From assembly GCA_017609645.1 (NCBI GenBank), contig JAFCDQ010000003.1:221571-285570 (forward strand): 64,000 nt of DNA, in the 5' to 3' direction. Below the pieces are notes generated by a model. That model had not been told where the DNA came from. It made no database searches and saw nothing but the letters and a program-made list of their open reading frames with translations. Source of the stretch: Candidatus Woesearchaeota archaeon. Its GTDB lineage: Archaea; Nanobdellota; Nanobdellia; Woesearchaeales; ARS49. Below, piece after piece: positions 2,676-35,567 of the stretch (positions within the stretch are counted from its first letter, which is position 1; each line of letters starts with the position of its first letter). A program made the translations under genes and the position numbers.

Positions 2676-4133
2676 ATGCCTAATGAACCTATTGTAGATA
2701 TTGCTTTAAACACAATAAACAAAAACAAGCAAGCTCTATTATTTGTAAATACTAAGAGAAGTGCTGAAGCTTGTGCTGAAAAGATTAGCAAGAAAACTAA
2801 ATTTAATGAAAAACAATTAGCTGAAAAAATATTAAAAGTTCTCACTAAACCAACTAAACAATGCAGAAGATTGGCTGCAAGTATGGAAAAAGGAATTGCT
2901 TTTCATCACGCGGGCTTGCACAACAAACAAAGAGAATTGATTGAGGATTCATTCAAAGAAGGTAAAATTAAAATCATTTGTGCAACTCCTACTTTAGCAG
3001 CAGGTGTTGATTTGCCTGCGTTCAGGGCAATTATTCGTGACGTGAAAAGGTTTGGTTTTACAGGAATGGCAAATATTCCTGTTTTAGAATTTTTGCAGAT
3101 GGCAGGACGTGCTGGTCGTCCAAATTATGACGAATTTGGTGAAGCTATTGTCATGGCAAGTTCTGATGGAGAAAAAAATGCAATCATTGAACATTATTTG
3201 CAGGGAGAGCCAGAAGATATTTTTTCAAAACTTGCAGTTGAACCTGTTTTAAGAGTCTATTTACTATCATTAATTGTTTCAAAAATAGTTAGAACTCCTG
3301 AGGAAATTTTTAATTTCTTTTCAAAAACTTTTTGGGCTTTTCAATACAAAGATATGGATAAATTAAAACAAATCATTAAAAGAGTTTTAAAATTATTAGA
3401 AAAATGGCAGTTTATTCAGCTCGTCGATAAAAAATATTTCAGAGCAACAATCATAGGCAAGAGAGTTTCTGAACTTTATCTTGATCCTGCTACTGCAATT
3501 CATTTGGTTAAAGGTATTGAAAGTGCAACAGTAAATGTCAAAGATTTTGCCTGGCTGCAGTTATTATCAGATACTTTAGAAATGCGTCCGCCATTAAGAA
3601 TTAAAACAAAAGAATTTGAAGAATATGAACAATTGACATTAAAATATGAGAATGAACTTCTCCTGCCTGAACCGAGCATGTTTGACACTGAATATAATGA
3701 TTGGATGAATTCATTGAAAACAGCGTCGATGTTTCATGATTGGATTGACGAGAAAGATGAAGAATGGCTTCTTGAAAAATATGATTGTCGTCCTGGTGAA
3801 ACTCGTGCAAAATTAAATATTTGCGATTGGCTTATTTACTCGTCAGAAGAATTAGCAAGACTCCTCGCTAAAATGAATCTTATCGCTCCATTAAAAAGAT
3901 TAAGGTTAAGATTAAAGCACGGCATTAAAGAAGAATTAGTGCCTTTGATTAAATTTGAAGGTATTGGAAGAATGAGAGCAAGAAAATTGTTTAGTAAAGG
4001 AATCAAAGATGCTGGTGATGTGAAAAAAGCAAAATATGATGTCTTAAGCCAGATTTTAACTCCAAAAATATCAACTAATTTGAAAAAACAAGTAGGTCAG
4101 CCAGGAAGACCGGAATCTTTAGAAAAATTTTAA
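2676..4133 (+). CDS. hel308: Hel308/Hjm (Ski2-like) helicase lacking the whole first RecA domain; split gene or truncated remnant
   Basis: FVNTKRSAE (IV), GIAFHHAGL, ATPTLAAGVDLPA (V), QMAGRAGRP (VI), winged helix, ratchet and HhH (GIGRMRARKLF) present; no Walker A or DExH; in-frame TAA at 2622-2624 upstream. Confidence 0.85.
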   Translation: MPNEPIVDIALNTINKNKQALLFVNTKRSAEACAEKISKKTKFNEKQLAEKILKVLTKPTKQCRRLAASMEKGIAFHHAGLHNKQRELIEDSFKEGKIKIICATPTLAAGVDLPAFRAIIRDVKRFGFTGMANIPVLEFLQMAGRAGRPNYDEFGEAIVMASSDGEKNAIIEHYLQGEPEDIFSKLAVEPVLRVYLLSLIVSKIVRTPEEIFNFFSKTFWAFQYKDMDKLKQIIKRVLKLLEKWQFIQLVDKKYFRATIIGKRVSELYLDPATAIHLVKGIESATVNVKDFAWLQLLSDTLEMRPPLRIKTKEFEEYEQLTLKYENELLLPEPSMFDTEYNDWMNSLKTASMFHDWIDEKDEEWLLEKYDCRPGETRAKLNICDWLIYSSEELARLLAKMNLIAPLKRLRLRLKHGIKEELVPLIKFEGIGRMRARKLFSKGIKDAGDVKKAKYDVLSQILTPKISTNLKKQVGQPGRPESLEKF

Positions 4134-6078: not shown

Positions 6079-6102
6079 GAACCGAATTAAATACCGCGAA
6101 GT

Positions 6103-6169
6103 TAAATACTTGCCCTTGGCAACTATATTCTCACTAAACACATCGACATTAATACGCACCTTGTGCCTA
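6103..6169 (+). repeat. Bipartite double-hairpin repeat, copy 1
   Basis: Block A 6103-6133 identical to 6743-6773 (31 bp; TTGCC-CTT-GGCAA hairpin); block B ACATTAATACGCACCTTGTGCCTA 6146-6169 (GCAC-CTT-GTGC hairpin). Confidence 0.92.
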
Positions 6170-6198
6170 TTTTCTCACTAAAGAATATGTGAATTTAA

Positions 6199-6693
6199 TT
6201 AACAACTAATCCCAAAATATTTCTTTAAAAAATACAACAACTCTTGATGAAATTTCTCTCCTGAATCTACTAGTTTCTGAATTTCTTCAATTGTAAAGAA
6301 TTCCATTTTTTCAACTTCTTCTGGATTTAAATTAAAAGGTCCATTATACGTTGTTTTAAAAATTCTTAAAAACTTTCTTATTCCTCTTTTATCTGAAAAA
6401 AAATCTTTTTTGAAAAGTTCTAATTCAGCTTCTACACCAAGTTCTTCTTTGTATTCTCTTAATGCTCCTTGTTCATATGTTTCTCCTTTTTGCACATGGC
6501 CTCCTGCAGAAGTGCACCAATGCTCAGGTGAAAAAGACTTATGCTTGCTTCTTTTTTGCAATGCTATTCTGCCTTTATCATCAAAAATCAATACGTGAAC
6601 AATTCTATGCAGTAATTTCTTATCATAAATATCCTGAATAGACGCAGAACCAATTACTGAATCTTCTTCATTAACTATATCTAGATATTCCAT
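6199..6693 (-). CDS. NUDIX hydrolase (IDI type 1/YfcD-like fold)
   Basis: Nudix box GGHVQKGETYEQGALREYKEELGV; LHRIVHVLIFD; LQKRS. Confidence 0.9.
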   Translation of the reverse strand: MEYLDIVNEEDSVIGSASIQDIYDKKLLHRIVHVLIFDDKGRIALQKRSKHKSFSPEHWCTSAGGHVQKGETYEQGALREYKEELGVEAELELFKKDFFSDKRGIRKFLRIFKTTYNGPFNLNPEEVEKMEFFTIEEIQKLVDSGEKFHQELLYFLKKYFGISC

Positions 6694-6742
6694 TAAAACA
6701 AGGAAAAACAGGTTATTTATTAATTTTATTTATTTTGCGAGA

Positions 6743-6827
6743 TAAATACTTGCCCTTGGCAACTATATTCTCATTAAAGTGGTTTTTTATTTAGCAACAT
6801 TAATACTGCACCTTGTGCCTAAATTTA
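6743..6827 (+). repeat. Bipartite double-hairpin repeat, copy 2 (direct repeat 640 bp from copy 1)
   Basis: Block A 6743-6773; block B ACATTAATACTGCACCTTGTGCCTAAATTTA 6797-6827. Confidence 0.92.
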
Positions 6828-6852
6828 AACTAAAAAAGTTAGAATTATTATA

Positions 6853-7800
6853 TTATTTTCTCTGCGCAGGTAACTTCCTTTCATGATATAAATCACCGAC
6901 TTGTTTCTTGAATTTCCTTAAGTTTATTTCAGCATAATCATACTGCATCATTATTTTTGCTTCAAATATAGCTCCTCTTTCAATATAATTCTTCTGTAAA
7001 CCGCTAATCAGCCAATATTTTTTATCAATTGGCTTCTTTGTGATAAAAATATAATCATGCCCGTCTTTGACTGGCCAAATACTAAGCCCTTCTGTTGTCA
7101 ATAATTCTTCTGATACTATATCATTTGAAACATCTACTAAAACATCTGTCTTAAAGCTTCTTTTCTTTGAAAACATTCGTAAAAACTTTTGAGCATTTTT
7201 TTCTAATGCGCGTTTATACTCTTTATTCAAAACAATTGTTTTCTTGCAATTCAAAGATTTTGGCACATGCTGTATAAATGGAAATTTTTTGTCAAAAGTA
7301 TGCATTAGTTTGTAATAATCATGATAACTGTATTTTTTGACTATTAAAGAAGGCTTATTGTGCATTTTGATGAAGTCTTTGACACAACAGCTAGGATAAT
7401 CATAAAGTTTGCCTGCAATCTTGTCTGCCTGTGTATGTCTGCCTTTGCCAGCTAATCTCACATATTTTTCAAATTCTTTTTTTTGTGTTCTTGTATGAAA
7501 TAAGTCATATCCTATCCAGACTCCTTTTATTCTCCATCTGATTTCATTTTTCTTTATTCCTGTAATTTCTTCAAATGTTTTAGGTCTGCTTTTCTTAAAG
7601 ATAATCCCTGCGTTATTCAGCATTTTTTCAAATCGAACAGCTTCTTGCGGTTTTTTTGGAAAAACTTTCAAAACCACATAAGTGACTGGCTTAACAGCTA
7701 AAGCAAAAAGAATTAATTTTAATTTTTCATTCATGTCAAATGCTTCATTATTTGTTGCGTAAGTAATCAAGTTTTTTTGCTCATTAAGCATTTTTTTCAC
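6853..7800 (-). CDS. Hypothetical protein (GxLYxYPxCC motif, loosely DUF483-like)
   Basis: 315-aa ORF, ATGA-coupled to the upstream gene. Confidence 0.7.
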   Translation of the reverse strand: MKKMLNEQKNLITYATNNEAFDMNEKLKLILFALAVKPVTYVVLKVFPKKPQEAVRFEKMLNNAGIIFKKSRPKTFEEITGIKKNEIRWRIKGVWIGYDLFHTRTQKKEFEKYVRLAGKGRHTQADKIAGKLYDYPSCCVKDFIKMHNKPSLIVKKYSYHDYYKLMHTFDKKFPFIQHVPKSLNCKKTIVLNKEYKRALEKNAQKFLRMFSKKRSFKTDVLVDVSNDIVSEELLTTEGLSIWPVKDGHDYIFITKKPIDKKYWLISGLQKNYIERGAIFEAKIMMQYDYAEINLRKFKKQVGDLYHERKLPAQRK

Positions 7801-29396: not shown

Positions 29397-31586
29397 ATGG
29401 CTGCTGAAAAAAGTATTGATAAGATTAAAAGGCTTGCAAAAGATCCTGAGCATATCAGAAATATTGCAACTTGTGCGCATATTGACCATGGTAAAACTAC
29501 TTTCTCCGATAATCTTCTTTTCGGAGCAGGTATGATGTCTGAAGCTTTAGCAGGAAAACAATTAGCATTAGATTTTCATGAAGATGAAAAAGCTAGAGGT
29601 ATTACTATTGATTCTGCTTCTGTTAGTATGGTCCACGAGTTTGACGGTAAAGAATATTTGATTAATCTTATTGATACTCCAGGGCATGTTGATTTTGGCG
29701 GCGATGTTACTAGAGCTATGAGAGCTATTGACGGTGCTATTTTGTTAACTTGCGCTGTTGAAGGTGTTATGCCTCAGACAGAAACAGTTCTTAGACAAGC
29801 TTTGAAAGAGCGTGTCAAGCCTGTTCTTTTTATTAACAAAACTGATAGACTAATAACTCAGCAGCAATTAACTCCTGAAAAAATGCAGGAGCGTTTTGTT
29901 AAAATAATCACCGAAGTTAATACATTAATCAAAGATATTGCTCCTGAAGAATTTAAAGAGAAATGGCAGGTTAATGTTCAGGATGGAAGTGTTGCTTTTG
30001 GCAGTGCTTTTCATAATTGGGCTTTAAACATTCCATACATGCAGGAGAAAAGTATTACTTTCAAAGAAGTTTTAGATGCTTATGCTAATTCTAGCACTCC
30101 TGAAGAAGCAGGCAAGATTCTTGCAAAAAAAGCACCTATCCATGAGATTGTTTTAAACATGTGTATTAAGCATCATCCAAATCCTAAGGTAGCTCAAGAA
30201 TATAGAATTAAAAAATTGTGGCATGGTGATTTAGAAAGTAAAGATGGTAAATCTCTGCTATCTTGCGACCCTACAGGTCCTTTGTTTTATTGTCCGATTA
30301 AGATTGTTGTTGATCCTCAGGCAGGAGAGATCGCTATTGGAAGAATTTTTTCAGGCACTATGAATAAAGGAGATCATGTTTATCTTAACAGAAAAAAGAT
30401 ACCTGCGAGAATTCAGCAGATTTTTATTGTAAATGGTGCAAAAAGAGAGATTGTTGATTCTATTCCTGCAGGTAATGTTATTGGTATCGGCGGTGTTGCA
30501 ACTGCTGCAGGTGAGACAATTACTTATGAACCTTCAGAACCATTTGAAGAAATTGTTCATTTGTTCGAGCCTGTTATTACTAAAGCTATTGAAGCTACCA
30601 AACCTGCAGACCTTCCTAAACTTATTGAAGTTTTGAGAATTATTGTGAAAGAAGATCCTACATTAAAAGTTGAAATTAATGAAGAAACTGGCGAGCACTT
30701 ATTGCATGGTATGGGCGAGTTGCATCTTGAAATTATTGAAAACAGGATTAAGACAGAGAAAGGTGTTCAAGTAAAAACTAGTCCGCCTATTGTTGTTTAT
30801 AGAGAGACTGTTAGCAAGGATAGTGATATTTATGAAGGTAAAGCTCCTAATAAGCATAATAAACTTTATTTCAGGGTTGAACCTTTAGATGCTGCTGCTT
30901 ACAAAGCTATTAAGTCTGGTGAGATTAGAGAAGGCAGGAGTAAGAAAAAAGATATTGCACTCAGAGATAAGTTTGTTGAATGTGACTGGGATAGCAAAGA
31001 AGCAACTAATGTTAAAGATATTTTTAATGGAAATGTTTTTGTTGACTCTACCAGAGGTATTGTTGCTTTGCCTGAAGTTATCGACATGATTCTTGACATG
31101 TTTGAAGATGTTATGAAGTTTGGCCCTATTGCTAAAGAGCCTTGCATTAAGGTTAAAGTTGTTTTAACTGATGCAAAACTGCATGAAGACGGCATTCATA
31201 GAGGTCAAGGCCAGATGTATCCTGCTGTTCGTGATGGTATTAGAGCTGCGATGATGGGCGCTGCTCCTGTTTTATACGAGCCTTTACAGATTCATTTGAT
31301 TGAAGTTCCTGTTGATTATACAGGAGAAATCACAAAACTTGTGAGCAATAAAAGAGGACAGTTGCTTGAGATGAATCAAGAAGACACTCGAACTATGATT
31401 AAAGCTAAGATCCCTGTTGCAGAGATGCTTGGCTGGAGTAGTGATTTAAGGAGCGCTACTGCAGGCAGAGGTATTTCTAGTTTAATGGATCAGATGTTTG
31501 AGAAGCTTCCAATGGACTTGCAGAATAAGATCATTCAGCAGATTAAAACTAGAAAAGGTTTGAAAGAATCACAAGTCGGTGCATGA
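29397..31586 (+). CDS. fusA: Archaeal translation elongation factor 2
   Basis: AHIDHGKTT, RGITI, DTPGHVDFGG, NKTD, GMGELHLEI, diphthamide-loop His in HEDGIHRG. Confidence 0.97.
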   Translation: MAAEKSIDKIKRLAKDPEHIRNIATCAHIDHGKTTFSDNLLFGAGMMSEALAGKQLALDFHEDEKARGITIDSASVSMVHEFDGKEYLINLIDTPGHVDFGGDVTRAMRAIDGAILLTCAVEGVMPQTETVLRQALKERVKPVLFINKTDRLITQQQLTPEKMQERFVKIITEVNTLIKDIAPEEFKEKWQVNVQDGSVAFGSAFHNWALNIPYMQEKSITFKEVLDAYANSSTPEEAGKILAKKAPIHEIVLNMCIKHHPNPKVAQEYRIKKLWHGDLESKDGKSLLSCDPTGPLFYCPIKIVVDPQAGEIAIGRIFSGTMNKGDHVYLNRKKIPARIQQIFIVNGAKREIVDSIPAGNVIGIGGVATAAGETITYEPSEPFEEIVHLFEPVITKAIEATKPADLPKLIEVLRIIVKEDPTLKVEINEETGEHLLHGMGELHLEIIENRIKTEKGVQVKTSPPIVVYRETVSKDSDIYEGKAPNKHNKLYFRVEPLDAAAYKAIKSGEIREGRSKKKDIALRDKFVECDWDSKEATNVKDIFNGNVFVDSTRGIVALPEVIDMILDMFEDVMKFGPIAKEPCIKVKVVLTDAKLHEDGIHRGQGQMYPAVRDGIRAAMMGAAPVLYEPLQIHLIEVPVDYTGEITKLVSNKRGQLLEMNQEDTRTMIKAKIPVAEMLGWSSDLRSATAGRGISSLMDQMFEKLPMDLQNKIIQQIKTRKGLKESQVGA

Positions 31587-31600
31587 AGAAACACACTACA

Positions 31601-31630
31601 ACATTAATACGTGCCTTGTGCCTAAATTTA
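31601..31630 (+). repeat. Dispersed repeat, block B only
   Basis: ACATTAATACGTGCCTTGTGCCTAAATTTA; the 5' arm reads GTGC instead of GCAC. Confidence 0.85.
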
Positions 31631-31711
31631 ATATTTACTTTATGCTAAAGTAGTGAATTCAGAAAGTTTTTTATATTTTCTCATCTATAACTATCTTAAC
31701 ATTAAAAAAAT

Positions 31712-32725
31712 TTATTTGTATTTAAATTCTAGCTTTTTTTTTGCATGGCCCGCAGTTAATTCTCCTTTAAATACTGTAGCCCATACTTCTATTCCTGGTA
31801 AATCAATCACTTTTGATTCAATTCTTTTAAAGGAATTGTCTAAATCTCCTTTTTTATAATCTACACTCCTCTGACTTAATACTATTACCTCTACTGATGT
31901 AAGTGCAGAATCTGAAGTATTCGCTCCTAAGAAATATAATGGATAACTTAAGTTTTCAGATAAATAACTAACTTCAATAGGTTTATGCATTACATAAAAA
32001 GGAGCATTTCCATCTTGACTACAATCAAGATTAGCAACTAATCCTAAACCTTTAGCAGCAACCTCTAGTGGAAACATTTCTTCAGCCACATCCTTATTAA
32101 AATAACCGTTTCTATTTTGGCCACCCCATTCATTCCACATCATGAATTTAGACAAAGAATCAACACCATTAACATTAAATAAAGGACTTTCAGCACTTTT
32201 CAGAGAAGAAAGATGTAATTTTAAACAGACTAATTCCATTAGTTTTCCGTCGCTAATACTATACCTTCCATTAGGTAAACCAACCATTACATCAAAATAA
32301 GTATCATCTCCGCTGAAAGATAATTGATTAAAAGTCACAATCCTTCTCTTTCCACTGTGATGCTCATCATCCTTAATCAAAATCCTAGCCTGAGCAACAC
32401 CCTTATAAGGATCCTCATTATGTAGCTTATACTTTAATGAACCTCTAACATTACCTACTGGTTTTGGAGGTCTTGGAGGGGGAGCTCCACACATAATTAC
32501 ATCAGTCACTAATCCAGTCTTTCCTTCTTGAGATGCCATCACTTCCTTAATAGCATTCCCTAAATGAGAATCAAGTATTATTCTTTCTACTTCTCCTACC
32601 TTTAATTTTTTATCAACTAAATTCCACAATTTATGTTCAGTTAAGTATTTAGCTACTTCACCAAAACGTTCAACTAGAATTGGTCTAGTTGGTGTTTCAT
32701 AAAAAACAATATCTTTATCACCCAT
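31712..32725 (-). CDS. Hypothetical protein (orphan)
   Basis: 337-aa ORF, no motif recognised. Confidence 0.7.
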   Translation of the reverse strand: MGDKDIVFYETPTRPILVERFGEVAKYLTEHKLWNLVDKKLKVGEVERIILDSHLGNAIKEVMASQEGKTGLVTDVIMCGAPPPRPPKPVGNVRGSLKYKLHNEDPYKGVAQARILIKDDEHHSGKRRIVTFNQLSFSGDDTYFDVMVGLPNGRYSISDGKLMELVCLKLHLSSLKSAESPLFNVNGVDSLSKFMMWNEWGGQNRNGYFNKDVAEEMFPLEVAAKGLGLVANLDCSQDGNAPFYVMHKPIEVSYLSENLSYPLYFLGANTSDSALTSVEVIVLSQRSVDYKKGDLDNSFKRIESKVIDLPGIEVWATVFKGELTAGHAKKKLEFKYK

Positions 32726-32920
32726 AAAAAATCATCAAAAAAATATTAATAAAACCAATATATAAATGTATGTATTAAAGCTTAGACGCGGTCTACCCCA
32801 ACCTAATCCAAGGTATTGAAGATTTGACAGAAACTAGCAGGCCTTATAAACTTCTTGCAAAACAATTTAAAAATAATTTGAAAACTATTTTAAATAAATA
32901 CTCCTTTTTCTTTAAACAAA

Positions 32921-33352
32921 ATGAAAACAAACCTATGCCAATTCAAACACTTAAGCTGTTTTGGCTGTTGTGGCCATGATTGGAAAACTAAAGATCAAAT
33001 TCTTGAACAAATAAAGAAAAACACAATAAATTGGAAGAATCACAGCTTAAATAAATTCTATAAAGAAAGTGAAAAACATCTCTCAAGATGCGGCGGATGT
33101 AAAAGTCTTATACTAAAAAACAATAAAATTGTCTGCGCTCTCCACCCATTTCAAAATAAAGGCGATGATTTCAGGGATAAAAATTGTAATAAGAATTATT
33201 TTTGTCAAACATTTAAAGAATTCTTGAATTGGGATAAAAAAACACAAAATTCTTTCTTAAAATTCTTAAAAAACAAGAAAATTAGCCATCATGAATACAG
33301 CATGGGCATGGATTCTGGCAATTTTTTAGCAGAATTCACAAAATTTAAATAA
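32921..33352 (+). CDS. Cys-rich hypothetical protein, possible Zn or Fe-S binding
   Basis: CFGCCG, CGGC, CALHP, C..NYFC. Confidence 0.65.
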   Translation: MKTNLCQFKHLSCFGCCGHDWKTKDQILEQIKKNTINWKNHSLNKFYKESEKHLSRCGGCKSLILKNNKIVCALHPFQNKGDDFRDKNCNKNYFCQTFKEFLNWDKKTQNSFLKFLKNKKISHHEYSMGMDSGNFLAEFTKFK

Positions 33353-33374
33353 AATTCTCAAAAAACTCAAAACT

Positions 33375-34175
33375 ATGCAATTAGGATTAAAAGATAAAAA
33401 AATCATAGTAACTGGCGCAGCTAATGGCATTGGTAGCGCTATTTTTCAGGCTTTGTTAAAAGAAAAAGCTTTTCCTATAGGATTTGATTTTGAAGAATTA
33501 AGAAATTCTGAATTAGAAGAGAAAATTAAAGAGTATAAAATTTCAAATAATTTTGATTTTTTCCAAGCAGATGTTTGTGATGAAGAAAGATTGAATTATA
33601 TTTTTAAAACACATATTAAAGAGATAAGTGGTCTTGTTAATAATGCAGGTGTATTAGGAGGAGATGATGCACACGGAGGCAGAACTAATGCTGCGTGGGA
33701 TAAAATGCTTAATGCTCATGCAAAGTCAGCTTTTTTATTAACAGAACTATCTTATCCTAAAATGAATAATGGTTCTATAGTTAATATAGGTTCTATAGAA
33801 TTAGAAATGGCCGCTCCTGGTGTTGTTTTGTATACTGCTGCTAAAGGAGCACTTCTTGGTTTGACTGTTTCTTATTCTACTCATTTGGCTCCAAATATCA
33901 GAGTTAATATTGTTTCACCAGGAAATGTTAATACTAAAAGAAATCTTGCTCAATATAAAGAACATAAAGAATTAGTAGATGCTTTTGAAGAAAAAACGCC
34001 TCTAAAAAGAAGTGTTGAGCCAGAAGAAGTTGCTGATTTAGTATTATTTTTACTTTCAGACAAAGCGAAGGCAATTACTGGTCAAAACCATATAATCGAC
34101 TGTGGTTACACAAAGGCATTATGGGATCCTATTTGGTCCAAAAAAGATCTTAATGACGTCTATAAACAAGAATAA
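33375..34175 (+). CDS. Short-chain dehydrogenase/reductase
   Basis: TGAANGIG, NNAG, YTAAK, VNIVSPG, ITGQ...DCG. Confidence 0.92.
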   Translation: MQLGLKDKKIIVTGAANGIGSAIFQALLKEKAFPIGFDFEELRNSELEEKIKEYKISNNFDFFQADVCDEERLNYIFKTHIKEISGLVNNAGVLGGDDAHGGRTNAAWDKMLNAHAKSAFLLTELSYPKMNNGSIVNIGSIELEMAAPGVVLYTAAKGALLGLTVSYSTHLAPNIRVNIVSPGNVNTKRNLAQYKEHKELVDAFEEKTPLKRSVEPEEVADLVLFLLSDKAKAITGQNHIIDCGYTKALWDPIWSKKDLNDVYKQE

Positions 34176-34207
34176 CTATTTTTGCTTAAAATACCGCTTT
34201 TGAAACC

Positions 34208-34221
34208 AAAATGTTTATAAA
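34208..34221 (+). promoter_or_regulatory. BRE/TATA promoter of tuf-rps10
   Basis: AAAATG-TTTATAAA; GGAGG RBS before ATG 34275. Confidence 0.65.
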
Positions 34222-34274
34222 TGAATGCCCTAATTCTGAGTTAAAGATAAACAAACATATTAGGAGGGTAAAAT

Positions 34275-35567
34275 ATGGCTAAAACAAAACCACACATTAA
34301 CCTTGTATTCATTGGTCATGTAGACCATGGTAAATCTACAACCGTCGGCAGGTTACTTTTTGATTCAGGCAATATTGACGAGCAAGCTATTAGAAAGTTA
34401 AAGGAAAAAGCTGAAGAGCTTGGTAAAGGCGGATTTGAGTTCGCTTTTGTTATGGATAACTTGAAAGAAGAGAGAGAAAGAGGAGTCACTATTGACTTAG
34501 CTCACAAGAAATTCGAGTCTGACAAGTATGATTTCACAATTATTGACGCACCTGGTCACAGGGACTTTATTAAGAACATGATCACTGGCGCAAGCCAAGC
34601 TGATGCCGCTGTTCTTGTTGTTTCTGGTAATGCTAGTGACGGTGTACAAGCTCAAACTAAAGAGCACGCATTTCTGGCAAAGACTCTTGGTGTTAGTCAA
34701 ATTATCGTAGCTGTTAATAAGATGGATATGGTAAAGTATGATGAAAAGAGATTTGAAGAAGTTAAAAAACAAGTTTCTGATCTATTGAAGATGGTTGGTT
34801 ATAAAATTGAAGAAATCCAATTTCTTCCAATTGCAGCTCTTCCAGGAGATAATCTTGCTAAGAAATCTGAGAATTTTGGATGGTTTAAAGGTCCAACTCT
34901 TTTAGAGGCTATTAACAACTTGAAAGAACCTGAAAAGCCAACTGAGCTTCCTTTAAGACTTCCTATCCAGGATGTTTACAAGATCTCTGGTATTGGAACT
35001 GTTCCTGTAGGAAGAGTCGAAACAGGTGTTATGAAGGTAGGTCAAAAGATTACTGTTGTTCCTGCTAGAGAAGGCAAAGGTGTTACAGGAGAAGTTAAGA
35101 GTATTGAGATGCACCATGAACAATTACAGCAAGCAGAGCCTGGTGATAATATTGGATTTAATGTCAGAGGCATTGAGCAAAAGGATATTGCAAGAGGAGA
35201 TGTTATCGGTAGTGCTGATAATGTTCCAACTATTGCAACTGAGTTCACAGCCAGAATGATTATTTTAAATCATCCAACTGTTGTGACTGTTGGCTACACT
35301 CCTGTGTTCCATATTCACACTGCTCAGATTGCATGTCAAATTACTGAGATTATCAGAAAGATAAATCCTGCTACTGGTGAAACTCTTGAAGAAAAGCCAG
35401 ACTTTGTTAAGAATGGTGATGCTTGCGAAGTAAGGATTAGACCTACATCTGCTTTGGTTATTGAAAAGCAGTCTGAAATTCCTCAACTGGCTAGATTCGC
35501 TGTGCGTGATTCTGGTCAGACAGTCGCTGCCGGTATGTGCATCGATTTAGTAAAGAAAGACATATAA
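34275..35567 (+). CDS. tuf: Archaeal translation elongation factor 1-alpha
   Basis: [46 protein letters not shown]. Confidence 0.98.

Follow-up and report, generated by a model that had tools for sequence, protein, structure and literature searches.

Two arrays of a single repeat unit flank the NUDIX gene

When a single gene lies between two copies of a hairpin-bearing repeat, the question arises whether the repeats serve to move the gene or simply share its neighbourhood. We addressed this question for a NUDIX hydrolase gene from a Candidatus Woesearchaeota archaeon, located in a 64,000-nt stretch of DNA (hereafter the window, C2:221571-285570 of the assembly G000). This assembly comprises 1.125 Mb in four contigs (C1 to C4), has a GC content of 32% and is approximately 90% complete; the genome is DPANN-like and carries archaeal genes including Hel308, EF-2 and orc1/cdc6. 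The first-pass annotation, made from the window alone, had described two copies of a bipartite double-hairpin element around the gene and had proposed a cassette-like system with its recombinase encoded elsewhere. Our analysis favours another answer, to which we give a probability of roughly 55%: a REP/BIME-like hairpin repeat, private to this lineage and acting at the DNA level, of which two arrays happen to flank the NUDIX gene.

The pair of direct repeats 640 bp apart is real (coordinates given without a contig name are those of the window). The hairpin TTGCC-CTT-GGCAA is found at 6110-6122 and again at 6750-6762, with an offset of exactly 640 nt, inside an identical 31-nt block (6103-6133 and 6743-6773), and the repeat finder aligned the two copies at 95% identity across 39 nt. 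A second hairpin with the same CTT loop, GCAC-CTT-GTGC, is present at 6156-6166 and 6808-6818. The window contains two copies of TTGCCCTTGGCAACTATATTCTCA, the 24-mer around the first hairpin, compared to 0.00 expected from 100 shuffles. The bipartite structure is ruled out: the two blocks of each copy are homologous versions of one unit (family D1 of the repeat finder), and each copy is a tandem array of two units of about 45 nt (6100-6185 and 6740-6835).

The first array starts with a plus-strand unit at 6100-6143, made of the 5' flank GTTAAATAC, the hairpin TTGCC-CTT-GGCAA, the 3' flank CTATATTCTCACTAAAC and a 4-nt linker (nhmmer E=2.7e-9; 57.4 bits with the covariance model). It is followed on the same strand by a unit at 6144-6185, in which the GCAC-CTT-GTGC hairpin is preceded by CGACATTAATAC and followed by CTATTTTCTCACTAAAG (nhmmer E=1e-9), and which ends 13 nt short of the NUDIX stop codon. 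The NUDIX gene itself (6199-6693, minus strand) encodes a 164-aa hydrolase (PF00293, E=1.4e-22, Pfam). It is the sole open reading frame (ORF) between the two arrays, as had been annotated, and is accompanied there by 46 nt of upstream sequence; a TATA-like AT stretch at 6694-6739, outside the repeat, fits the promoter geometry of the genome. The second array opens with a plus-strand unit at 6737-6779, in which GAGATAAATAC and CTATATTCTCATTAAAG enclose the TTGCC-CTT-GGCAA hairpin (nhmmer E=3e-11; 65.2 bits). A T-rich insert, TGGTTTTTTATTTA (6780-6793, plus strand), separates it from the plus-strand unit at 6794-6835, composed of GCAACATTAATAC(T), the GCAC-CTT-GTGC hairpin and CTAAATTTAAACTAAAAAAG (nhmmer E=4.7e-4; 37.5 bits). 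This last unit ends 18 nt short of the stop codon of a DUF483-like gene (6853-7800, minus strand). The insert TGGTTTTTTATTTA is also present after a GTGCC unit at C1:440.5k, and a close variant of it after a unit at C1:443.5k.

The units belong to a genome-wide family with covarying stems

We then searched the whole assembly with a regular expression, an nhmmer profile and a covariance model. This census detected about 35 units, spread over 15 intergenic loci at which one to six of them form an array. The hairpins noticed at first pass are real, and their stems covary, but the arrays around the NUDIX gene do not form a unique pair.

The consensus unit consists of CGACATTAATAC, a GC-rich stem of 4-5 bp, the loop CTT, the matching stem, CTATATTTTAATTAAAC and a linker of 4-5 nt. 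Its core is an extended imperfect palindrome, ATA-C-[stem]-CTT-[stem']-C-TAT, with three extra A-T pairs across a C.C mismatch. Ten stem sequences were observed (TTGCC, GCAC, GCGC, TGAGC, GTGCC, GCACC, TGCGC, GCGTC, GTGTC and GTGC), while the loop, the closing C-G pair and the AT-rich flanks are conserved. Perfect stems of at least 4 bp were found in about 29 of 33 units, which were chosen by overall similarity and among which the register of three rows was corrected by eye; the remaining units have G-T pairs or, in one unit, two A-C mismatches. In an ungapped alignment of 17 units with five-pair stems, 100% of the cells were paired and two-sided changes were observed at four of the five pairs, a pairing level that no slid or shuffled control approached. 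Since these 17 units were preselected for perfect stems, the 33-unit count is the fairer figure.

Compensated stems were also found between near-identical flanks, namely GCAC/GTGC versus GCGC/GCGC (C1:338921 and C1:443407) and TTGCC/GGCAA (C2:228315) versus GTGCC/GGCAC (C1:440528). Because the stems covary while the loop and the flanks stay constant, the alignments support the hairpins as a real and selected feature. The similarity of the flanks tracks neither stem type nor distance, suggesting that units have been reshuffled between arrays.

Orientation follows the chromosome and not transcription

The arrays fill whole spacers, and their neighbours are mostly housekeeping genes (EF-2, FtsZ, rpS15, primase, Mre11 and dTMP kinase). 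Four spacers are convergent, seven tandem and two divergent, and two are at contig ends. All adjacent units are head-to-tail. On C1, 10 of 10 loci are on the minus strand and on C2, 5 of 5 are on the plus strand, although the tandem spacers contain units co-oriented with the genes in four cases and anti-oriented in three. The orientation therefore follows the chromosome rather than transcription, as would suit a site that is read on folded DNA and not on mRNA.

This placement bears directly on a role at the transcript level, in which the hairpin and its U-rich tract would end or stabilise neighbouring transcripts, as stacked terminators or 3'-end protectors, or in which the units would be small-RNA genes. 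Of the 14 loci examined, 10 have an array edge at 6-27 nt from a stop codon; TATATTTT comes after every hairpin, and a T6 insert is present in three units. In a consensus scan the TTGCC hairpins appeared terminator-like (3 found versus 0.7 expected), and in three units the G-T pairs are on the written strand. In addition, unrelated hairpin arrays occupy the dTMP kinase spacer of G001, a genome of the same genus, suggesting that such spacers tolerate or need hairpins. Nevertheless, with their orientation fixed along the chromosome, the units run antisense to the adjacent genes or lie upstream of them in the three anti-oriented tandem spacers and in both divergent ones, and the unit with A-C mismatches would form G-U pairs only on the other strand. 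The stems are short, the folding of whole arrays is unremarkable (z from -0.5 to -2.1), no unit matches Rfam, and there is no consistent promoter geometry relative to downstream genes. The family is moreover absent from all the relatives, which must end the same transcripts. Taken together, we consider a transcript-level role unlikely.

Two more specific candidates were rejected. Neither ARAGORN nor Rfam, in gathering and E-value modes, reported a tRNA or a known RNA family at the units. A portable promoter does not agree with the distances observed, as the TATA signal of this genome starts 35-26 nt before the ATG and the units are 9, 44, 273 and 387 nt from the divergent genes.

The uniform direction of the units could instead reflect chromosome-structuring or polarity sites, like Ter, KOPS or parS, at which a DNA-binding protein would read the flanks and the extruded hairpin and mark a domain or the direction of replication. 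Indeed, the units are confined to C1:213-580k and C2:224-316k (about 460 kb in total) and none was found in the contiguous 437 kb formed by C4 and C1:0-213k, joined through an 82-nt overlap between the end of C4 and the start of C1. After removal of the coding-strand effect, the units are on the T/G-rich strand of both contigs, and orc1/cdc6 (C1:183.7k) is 30 kb ahead of the first array. However, an agreement with strand composition across two contigs amounts to one bit of information, no sign change of the skew was found, and there is no known candidate for the binding protein. An essential structural site would also be odd as a tandem array of up to six units with differing stems, absent from every relative. 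We therefore regard polarity sites as very unlikely.

The composition of the chromosome is itself unusual. Once the coding-strand effect is removed, A and C prevail on one strand (AT skew up to 0.24) over all 804 contiguous kb of C4 and C1, and no sign change was observed over this length, the orc1/cdc6 region included. The skew fades to about 0 at C1:450-580k and is of opposite sign on C2. A single-sign skew is unusual for a bidirectionally replicated chromosome. The skew was rejected as a guide to replication polarity in view of the missing sign change across 804 kb.

The family is absent from relatives and the NUDIX site is variable

To place the family among related genomes, we compared this genome with its nearest available relatives, G001 and G002, which are of the same genus with approximately 55-64% protein identity; an exact-protein look-up for closer strains returned none. 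The pattern AATAC-N4-5-CTT-N4-5-CTATWTT has 25 matches in this genome and 0-2 matches in each of 40 relatives and of 400 genomes of the order, which is the level of the reversed-pattern control. The covariance model found no units in 25 relatives, and exact-pattern scans of JGI metagenome contigs and viral contigs gave 0 matches. Searching relatives for the repeat blocks, as proposed at first pass, thus indicates that the family is absent from them. At 1.125 Mb (90% complete), this genome is much larger than G001 and G002, which measure about 0.8 Mb (89%) and 0.56 Mb (82%), respectively. Reciprocal best hits in G001 and G002 exist for only 42-48% of the ORFs of at least 80 aa of this genome.

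Gene order was compared through reciprocal best hits, with G002 rebuilt in full and G001 mostly (its last 15 or more contigs being left out). Both same-genus relatives lack the NUDIX gene at this site. In G002, the DUF483 gene is followed, 3 nt on, by a convergent gene. The site is thus free of the NUDIX gene, but neither did it keep the single repeat that a cassette excision could have left behind: no repeat was found there or anywhere in the G002 genome. We tested whether the G002 convergent gene (162 aa) and p148 are orthologues, which would have made a clean empty site, and rejected this in the absence of significant BLASTP similarity. Since the two are not detectably related, the stretch between the DUF483 and EEP nuclease genes is a variable region and not a clean empty site. 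The G001 orthologue of the NUDIX gene (47% identity) is in another context, within about 5 kb of the orthologue of C2:220921, a gene located 6.5 kb from the NUDIX gene here.

Regarding the gene itself, its composition is native and like that of its neighbours (GC 0.297; GC at third codon positions, GC3, 0.182). The best outside relatives are 46-49% identical and come from mixed taxa, with Nanoarchaeia metagenome-assembled genomes among the nearest. A recent horizontal origin was rejected on both grounds. Duplication of the NUDIX gene together with the repeats was rejected as well, as the two array-adjacent NUDIX genes of this genome are unrelated in sequence and the gene of the window has no close paralogue.

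Arrays are frequently found beside lineage-specific genes

Seven of the nine evaluable loci adjoin genes that are absent at that position from the same-genus relatives. Besides the NUDIX gene between its two arrays, these are a primase locus, where one array separates the primase gene from genes of 96 aa and 187 aa and another separates these from a Toprim gene; an array between rpS15 and a 132-aa gene; an array next to a Ham1 ITPase gene; an array next to a second NUDIX gene; and two further loci of the window.

The first of these two is a single plus-strand unit at 31598-31637, with the hairpin GTGC-CTT-GTGC at 31611-31621 including two G-T pairs. It is located 12 nt past the EF-2 stop codon, before a 337-aa gene, and forms the left edge of the gene insertion that parts EF-2 from tuf. 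This interval, at 31586-34275 (C2:253156-255845), holds three genes, of 337, 143 and 266 aa, whereas EF-2 and tuf are adjacent in G002 and only the 143-aa gene lies between them in G001. The second is a variant plus-strand unit at 2596-2631, AACAC-GCACCC-CCACA-GGGTGC-CTAAATATTT, with a 6-bp stem and a 5-nt loop, between a 199-aa hexapeptide-repeat gene, which G002 does not have there, and a Hel308-like gene. The latter (485 aa, 2676-4133) lacks the first motor domain. It has an orthologue of the same length in G002 (75% identity, about 503 aa); therefore, the short form is conserved in the genus and does not result from a recent truncation at the hairpin.

By comparison with G002, arrays are present in 3 of 53 insertion islands versus 1 of 234 collinear junctions (Fisher p=0.02), and by comparison with G001 in 3 of 41 versus 1 of 273 (p=0.008). 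When spacers of at least 30 nt are the unit of counting, the enrichment is only approximately 3% versus 1% and not significant. Two arrays are in spacers whose gene order is unchanged in a relative; at one of them the array appears as a pure insertion, the two neighbouring genes being 192 nt apart here and 12 nt apart in G002. Relative to G002, a synteny breakpoint coincides with the array that lies at the C1 end. We consider the association of arrays with lineage-specific genes as a lead and not as a proof.

This association speaks for an explanation close to the first-pass proposal, in which the arrays would be sites of insertion, excision or exchange of segments, with folded strands recognised by an enzyme and the NUDIX gene as one such segment. 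The loci beside relative-lacking genes, the enrichment in islands and the breakpoint at the C1 end are in agreement with it, and the uniform orientation would fit sites used on one strand. Contigs C1 and C2 moreover both end in near-identical arrays with different outer flanks, which may delimit a second bracketed segment. On the other hand, the per-spacer contrast suggests that arrays and new genes may merely share permissive spacers. In most islands the array is at one edge only or inside the island, and the two arrays in collinear spacers come without any inserted gene. Orientation is mixed among the inserted genes, whose composition is native. At about 55-64% protein identity, insertion is indistinguishable from deletion and many changes have accumulated; the variability of the DUF483-EEP nuclease stretch in G002 and the position of the G001 NUDIX orthologue in the same broad neighbourhood also count against it. 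A dedicated cassette system agrees poorly with the census too, as only the NUDIX locus has a single gene bracketed on both sides, and other arrays stand alone among housekeeping genes. We thus consider such an exchange system improbable.

A more specific version is that the arrays are joints of a previously undescribed form of gene movement in DPANN, with folded-strand sites oriented by replication and an enzyme unrelated to integron integrases and Y1 transposases. If so, it would explain why seven of nine arrays adjoin genes lacking in relatives and why this genome is larger than others of its genus; to us it is quite doubtful. The corresponding list of moved segments (the NUDIX gene, the second NUDIX gene, the Ham1 ITPase gene, the Toprim gene and others) deserves equally little confidence.

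The contig ends mentioned above (C1:579521-579717 and C2:315953-316064) are in or beside arrays and share about 88 identical bases, with GTGTC/GACGC and TTGCC units. We rejected their fusion into one overlapping array, as the outer flanks differ beyond the shared 88 nt or so. The repeat family is probably responsible for these assembly breaks, and the two arrays may flank an unassembled segment.

No known mobilising enzyme accompanies the repeat

A recombinase encoded elsewhere, as anticipated at first pass, was not found. When the whole 1.125-Mb assembly was searched in six frames, nothing matched the Y1/HUH transposase family (PF01797, which includes RAYT), while positive controls matched in 6 genomes; with an assembly about 90% complete, this absence is not absolute. 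For TnpB (PF07282), only a 17-bit match below the cut-off was obtained in the genome, and no integron integrase was found in it. The sole tyrosine recombinase is XerA-like and encoded on C4 (166.8k), a contig without units, and no HUH or tyrosine recombinase gene is near any array. Thus, no known hairpin-dependent transposase is encoded in this 90%-complete genome.

We therefore compared the family with the known systems of hairpin repeats. REPs with 5-bp stems and head-to-tail tandem clusters are documented, and the REP palindrome has a conserved GTAG or CGTC tetranucleotide at one end (PMC3733652). Like REPs and BIMEs, the units described here are short GC-rich extragenic stem-loops, repeated within one genome, often near gene 3' ends, lineage-specific and with compensating changes. 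They differ in that AATAC and CTAT (on the other strand, ATAG/GTAT) border the stems of all units, GTAG being present in a few linkers only; in that there is no RAYT gene and the copy number, about 35, is much lower; in that all units are direct, whereas BIMEs alternate in orientation; and in that many stems are combined with one loop and one pair of flanks, in an archaeal host.

Integron attC sites are also folded-strand sites in which structure prevails over sequence, with one gene bounded by two sites and an orientation that matters relative to replication. They measure 57-141 bp, contain R''/L''-L'/R' boxes and extrahelical bases, and are present singly in each cassette of an array that adjoins intI, attI and Pc. 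In contrast, the present 45-nt units have a single hairpin of 11-13 nt, are grouped by one to six per site and are dispersed over 460 kb among housekeeping genes, without an integron integrase and with genes of mixed orientation between sites, FtsZ included. The ends of IS200/IS605 elements and PATEs share with our units the small hairpins on single-stranded DNA, the strand-specific orientation tied to the lagging-strand template and the lack of terminal inverted repeats and target duplications. However, neither TnpA (Y1) nor TnpB is present here, there are no distinct left and right ends, and the units are tandem with one architecture.

In archaea, the MJRE elements of Methanocaldococcus jannaschii and the Sulfolobus MITEs are small non-coding hairpin repeats of spacers, lineage-specific and without an encoded transposase. 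No similarity to them was detected by sequence in Rfam, and MITEs have terminal inverted repeats and target duplications, neither of which was seen here, where array ends are complete unit flanks. A CRISPR array was rejected since the units abut with 4-5-nt linkers and the stem itself is the variable part; the only Rfam match, CRISPR-DR7, is at chance level (20.5 bits for a gathering score of 37) and outside the units. Because the defining tests of these systems fail, the family is outside REP-RAYT, integron attC, IS200/IS605, MITE and CRISPR, and is of the small-palindromic-repeat kind.

A REP/BIME-like repeat as the favoured explanation

In the reading that we favour, recognition or selection would act on the hairpin itself, probably as it forms on single-stranded or extruded DNA while replication or repair is under way, and not on mRNA. 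Units would be copied beside existing units or into nearby spacers, building up arrays between whose members recombination or gene conversion would then cause shuffling. That the NUDIX gene is bracketed would follow from the presence of arrays in both of its spacers; the bracketing could stem from recombination between arrays, but we found no evidence of dedicated cassette machinery.

Several observations weigh against this explanation. With neither RAYT/Y1 nor TnpB encoded in the genome, and without the GTAG/CGTC tag, this reading has no mechanism of mobilisation to offer, and a REP family would be expected to have more copies. Nor is there an obvious reason why a purely selfish element should stay within one chromosomal domain. 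The enrichment beside lineage-specific genes is not predicted by a model of neutral filler. Finally, G001 has non-homologous hairpin arrays in at least one orthologous spacer, that of dTMP kinase, and hairpins in orthologous spacers could mean that a function requires them, for example at RNA 3' ends.

Small hairpin repeats are well studied in bacteria (REP/REPIN and RAYT), hardly described in archaea and not in DPANN. Three traits make the present family unusual. Its many stems covary although the loop and the flanks stay fixed, its units are strictly co-oriented across hundreds of kilobases regardless of transcription, and it comes without a known mobilising enzyme. Should the association with lineage-specific genes persist in closer strains, the arrays would mark the way in which these reduced genomes acquire genes. 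Should it not persist, the family would still offer a clear example of a hairpin, in DNA or RNA, under selection within a repeat, and would be of practical use for typing strains and recognising assembly breaks in the lineage.

Other hairpin families in the genus

Additional hairpins were observed in the genomes compared. In G001, contig C15 (L049:1204-1417) contains four tandem units of about 55 nt with a CCTCTTG-N7-CAAGAG hairpin, whose sequence is not related to that of the family described above, within a non-coding stretch of about 700 nt upstream of the NUDIX orthologue. Contig C22 of the same genome (7350-7480), in the spacer orthologous to the four-unit array at C1:417k, has two hairpins with covarying stems (CCAGTC...GACTGG and CCACCAATC...GATTGGTGG) and a shared CAATAGA loop, that is, a different repeat family in the same spacer. 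At C43:1100-1230, G001 has two tandem units composed of ATCACCTCTTTTTCCC, a covarying stem, a TTCG loop, the matching stem and GGTTTCT, in which CACCTC is similar to an anti-Shine-Dalgarno sequence. Our genome has one hairpin homologous to these units (CCTCGCAAACGTC-TTTCGG-GACGTTTGCAGGG), directly beside the 440k array (C1:~440540-440600). These TTCG-loop hairpins are a second hairpin family, conserved within the genus.

Apart from these repeats, most of the 5.4-kb contig C3 is occupied by a 1192-aa PEP synthase-like ORF (C3:1004-4582) with an insert that was judged by eye to be intein-like.

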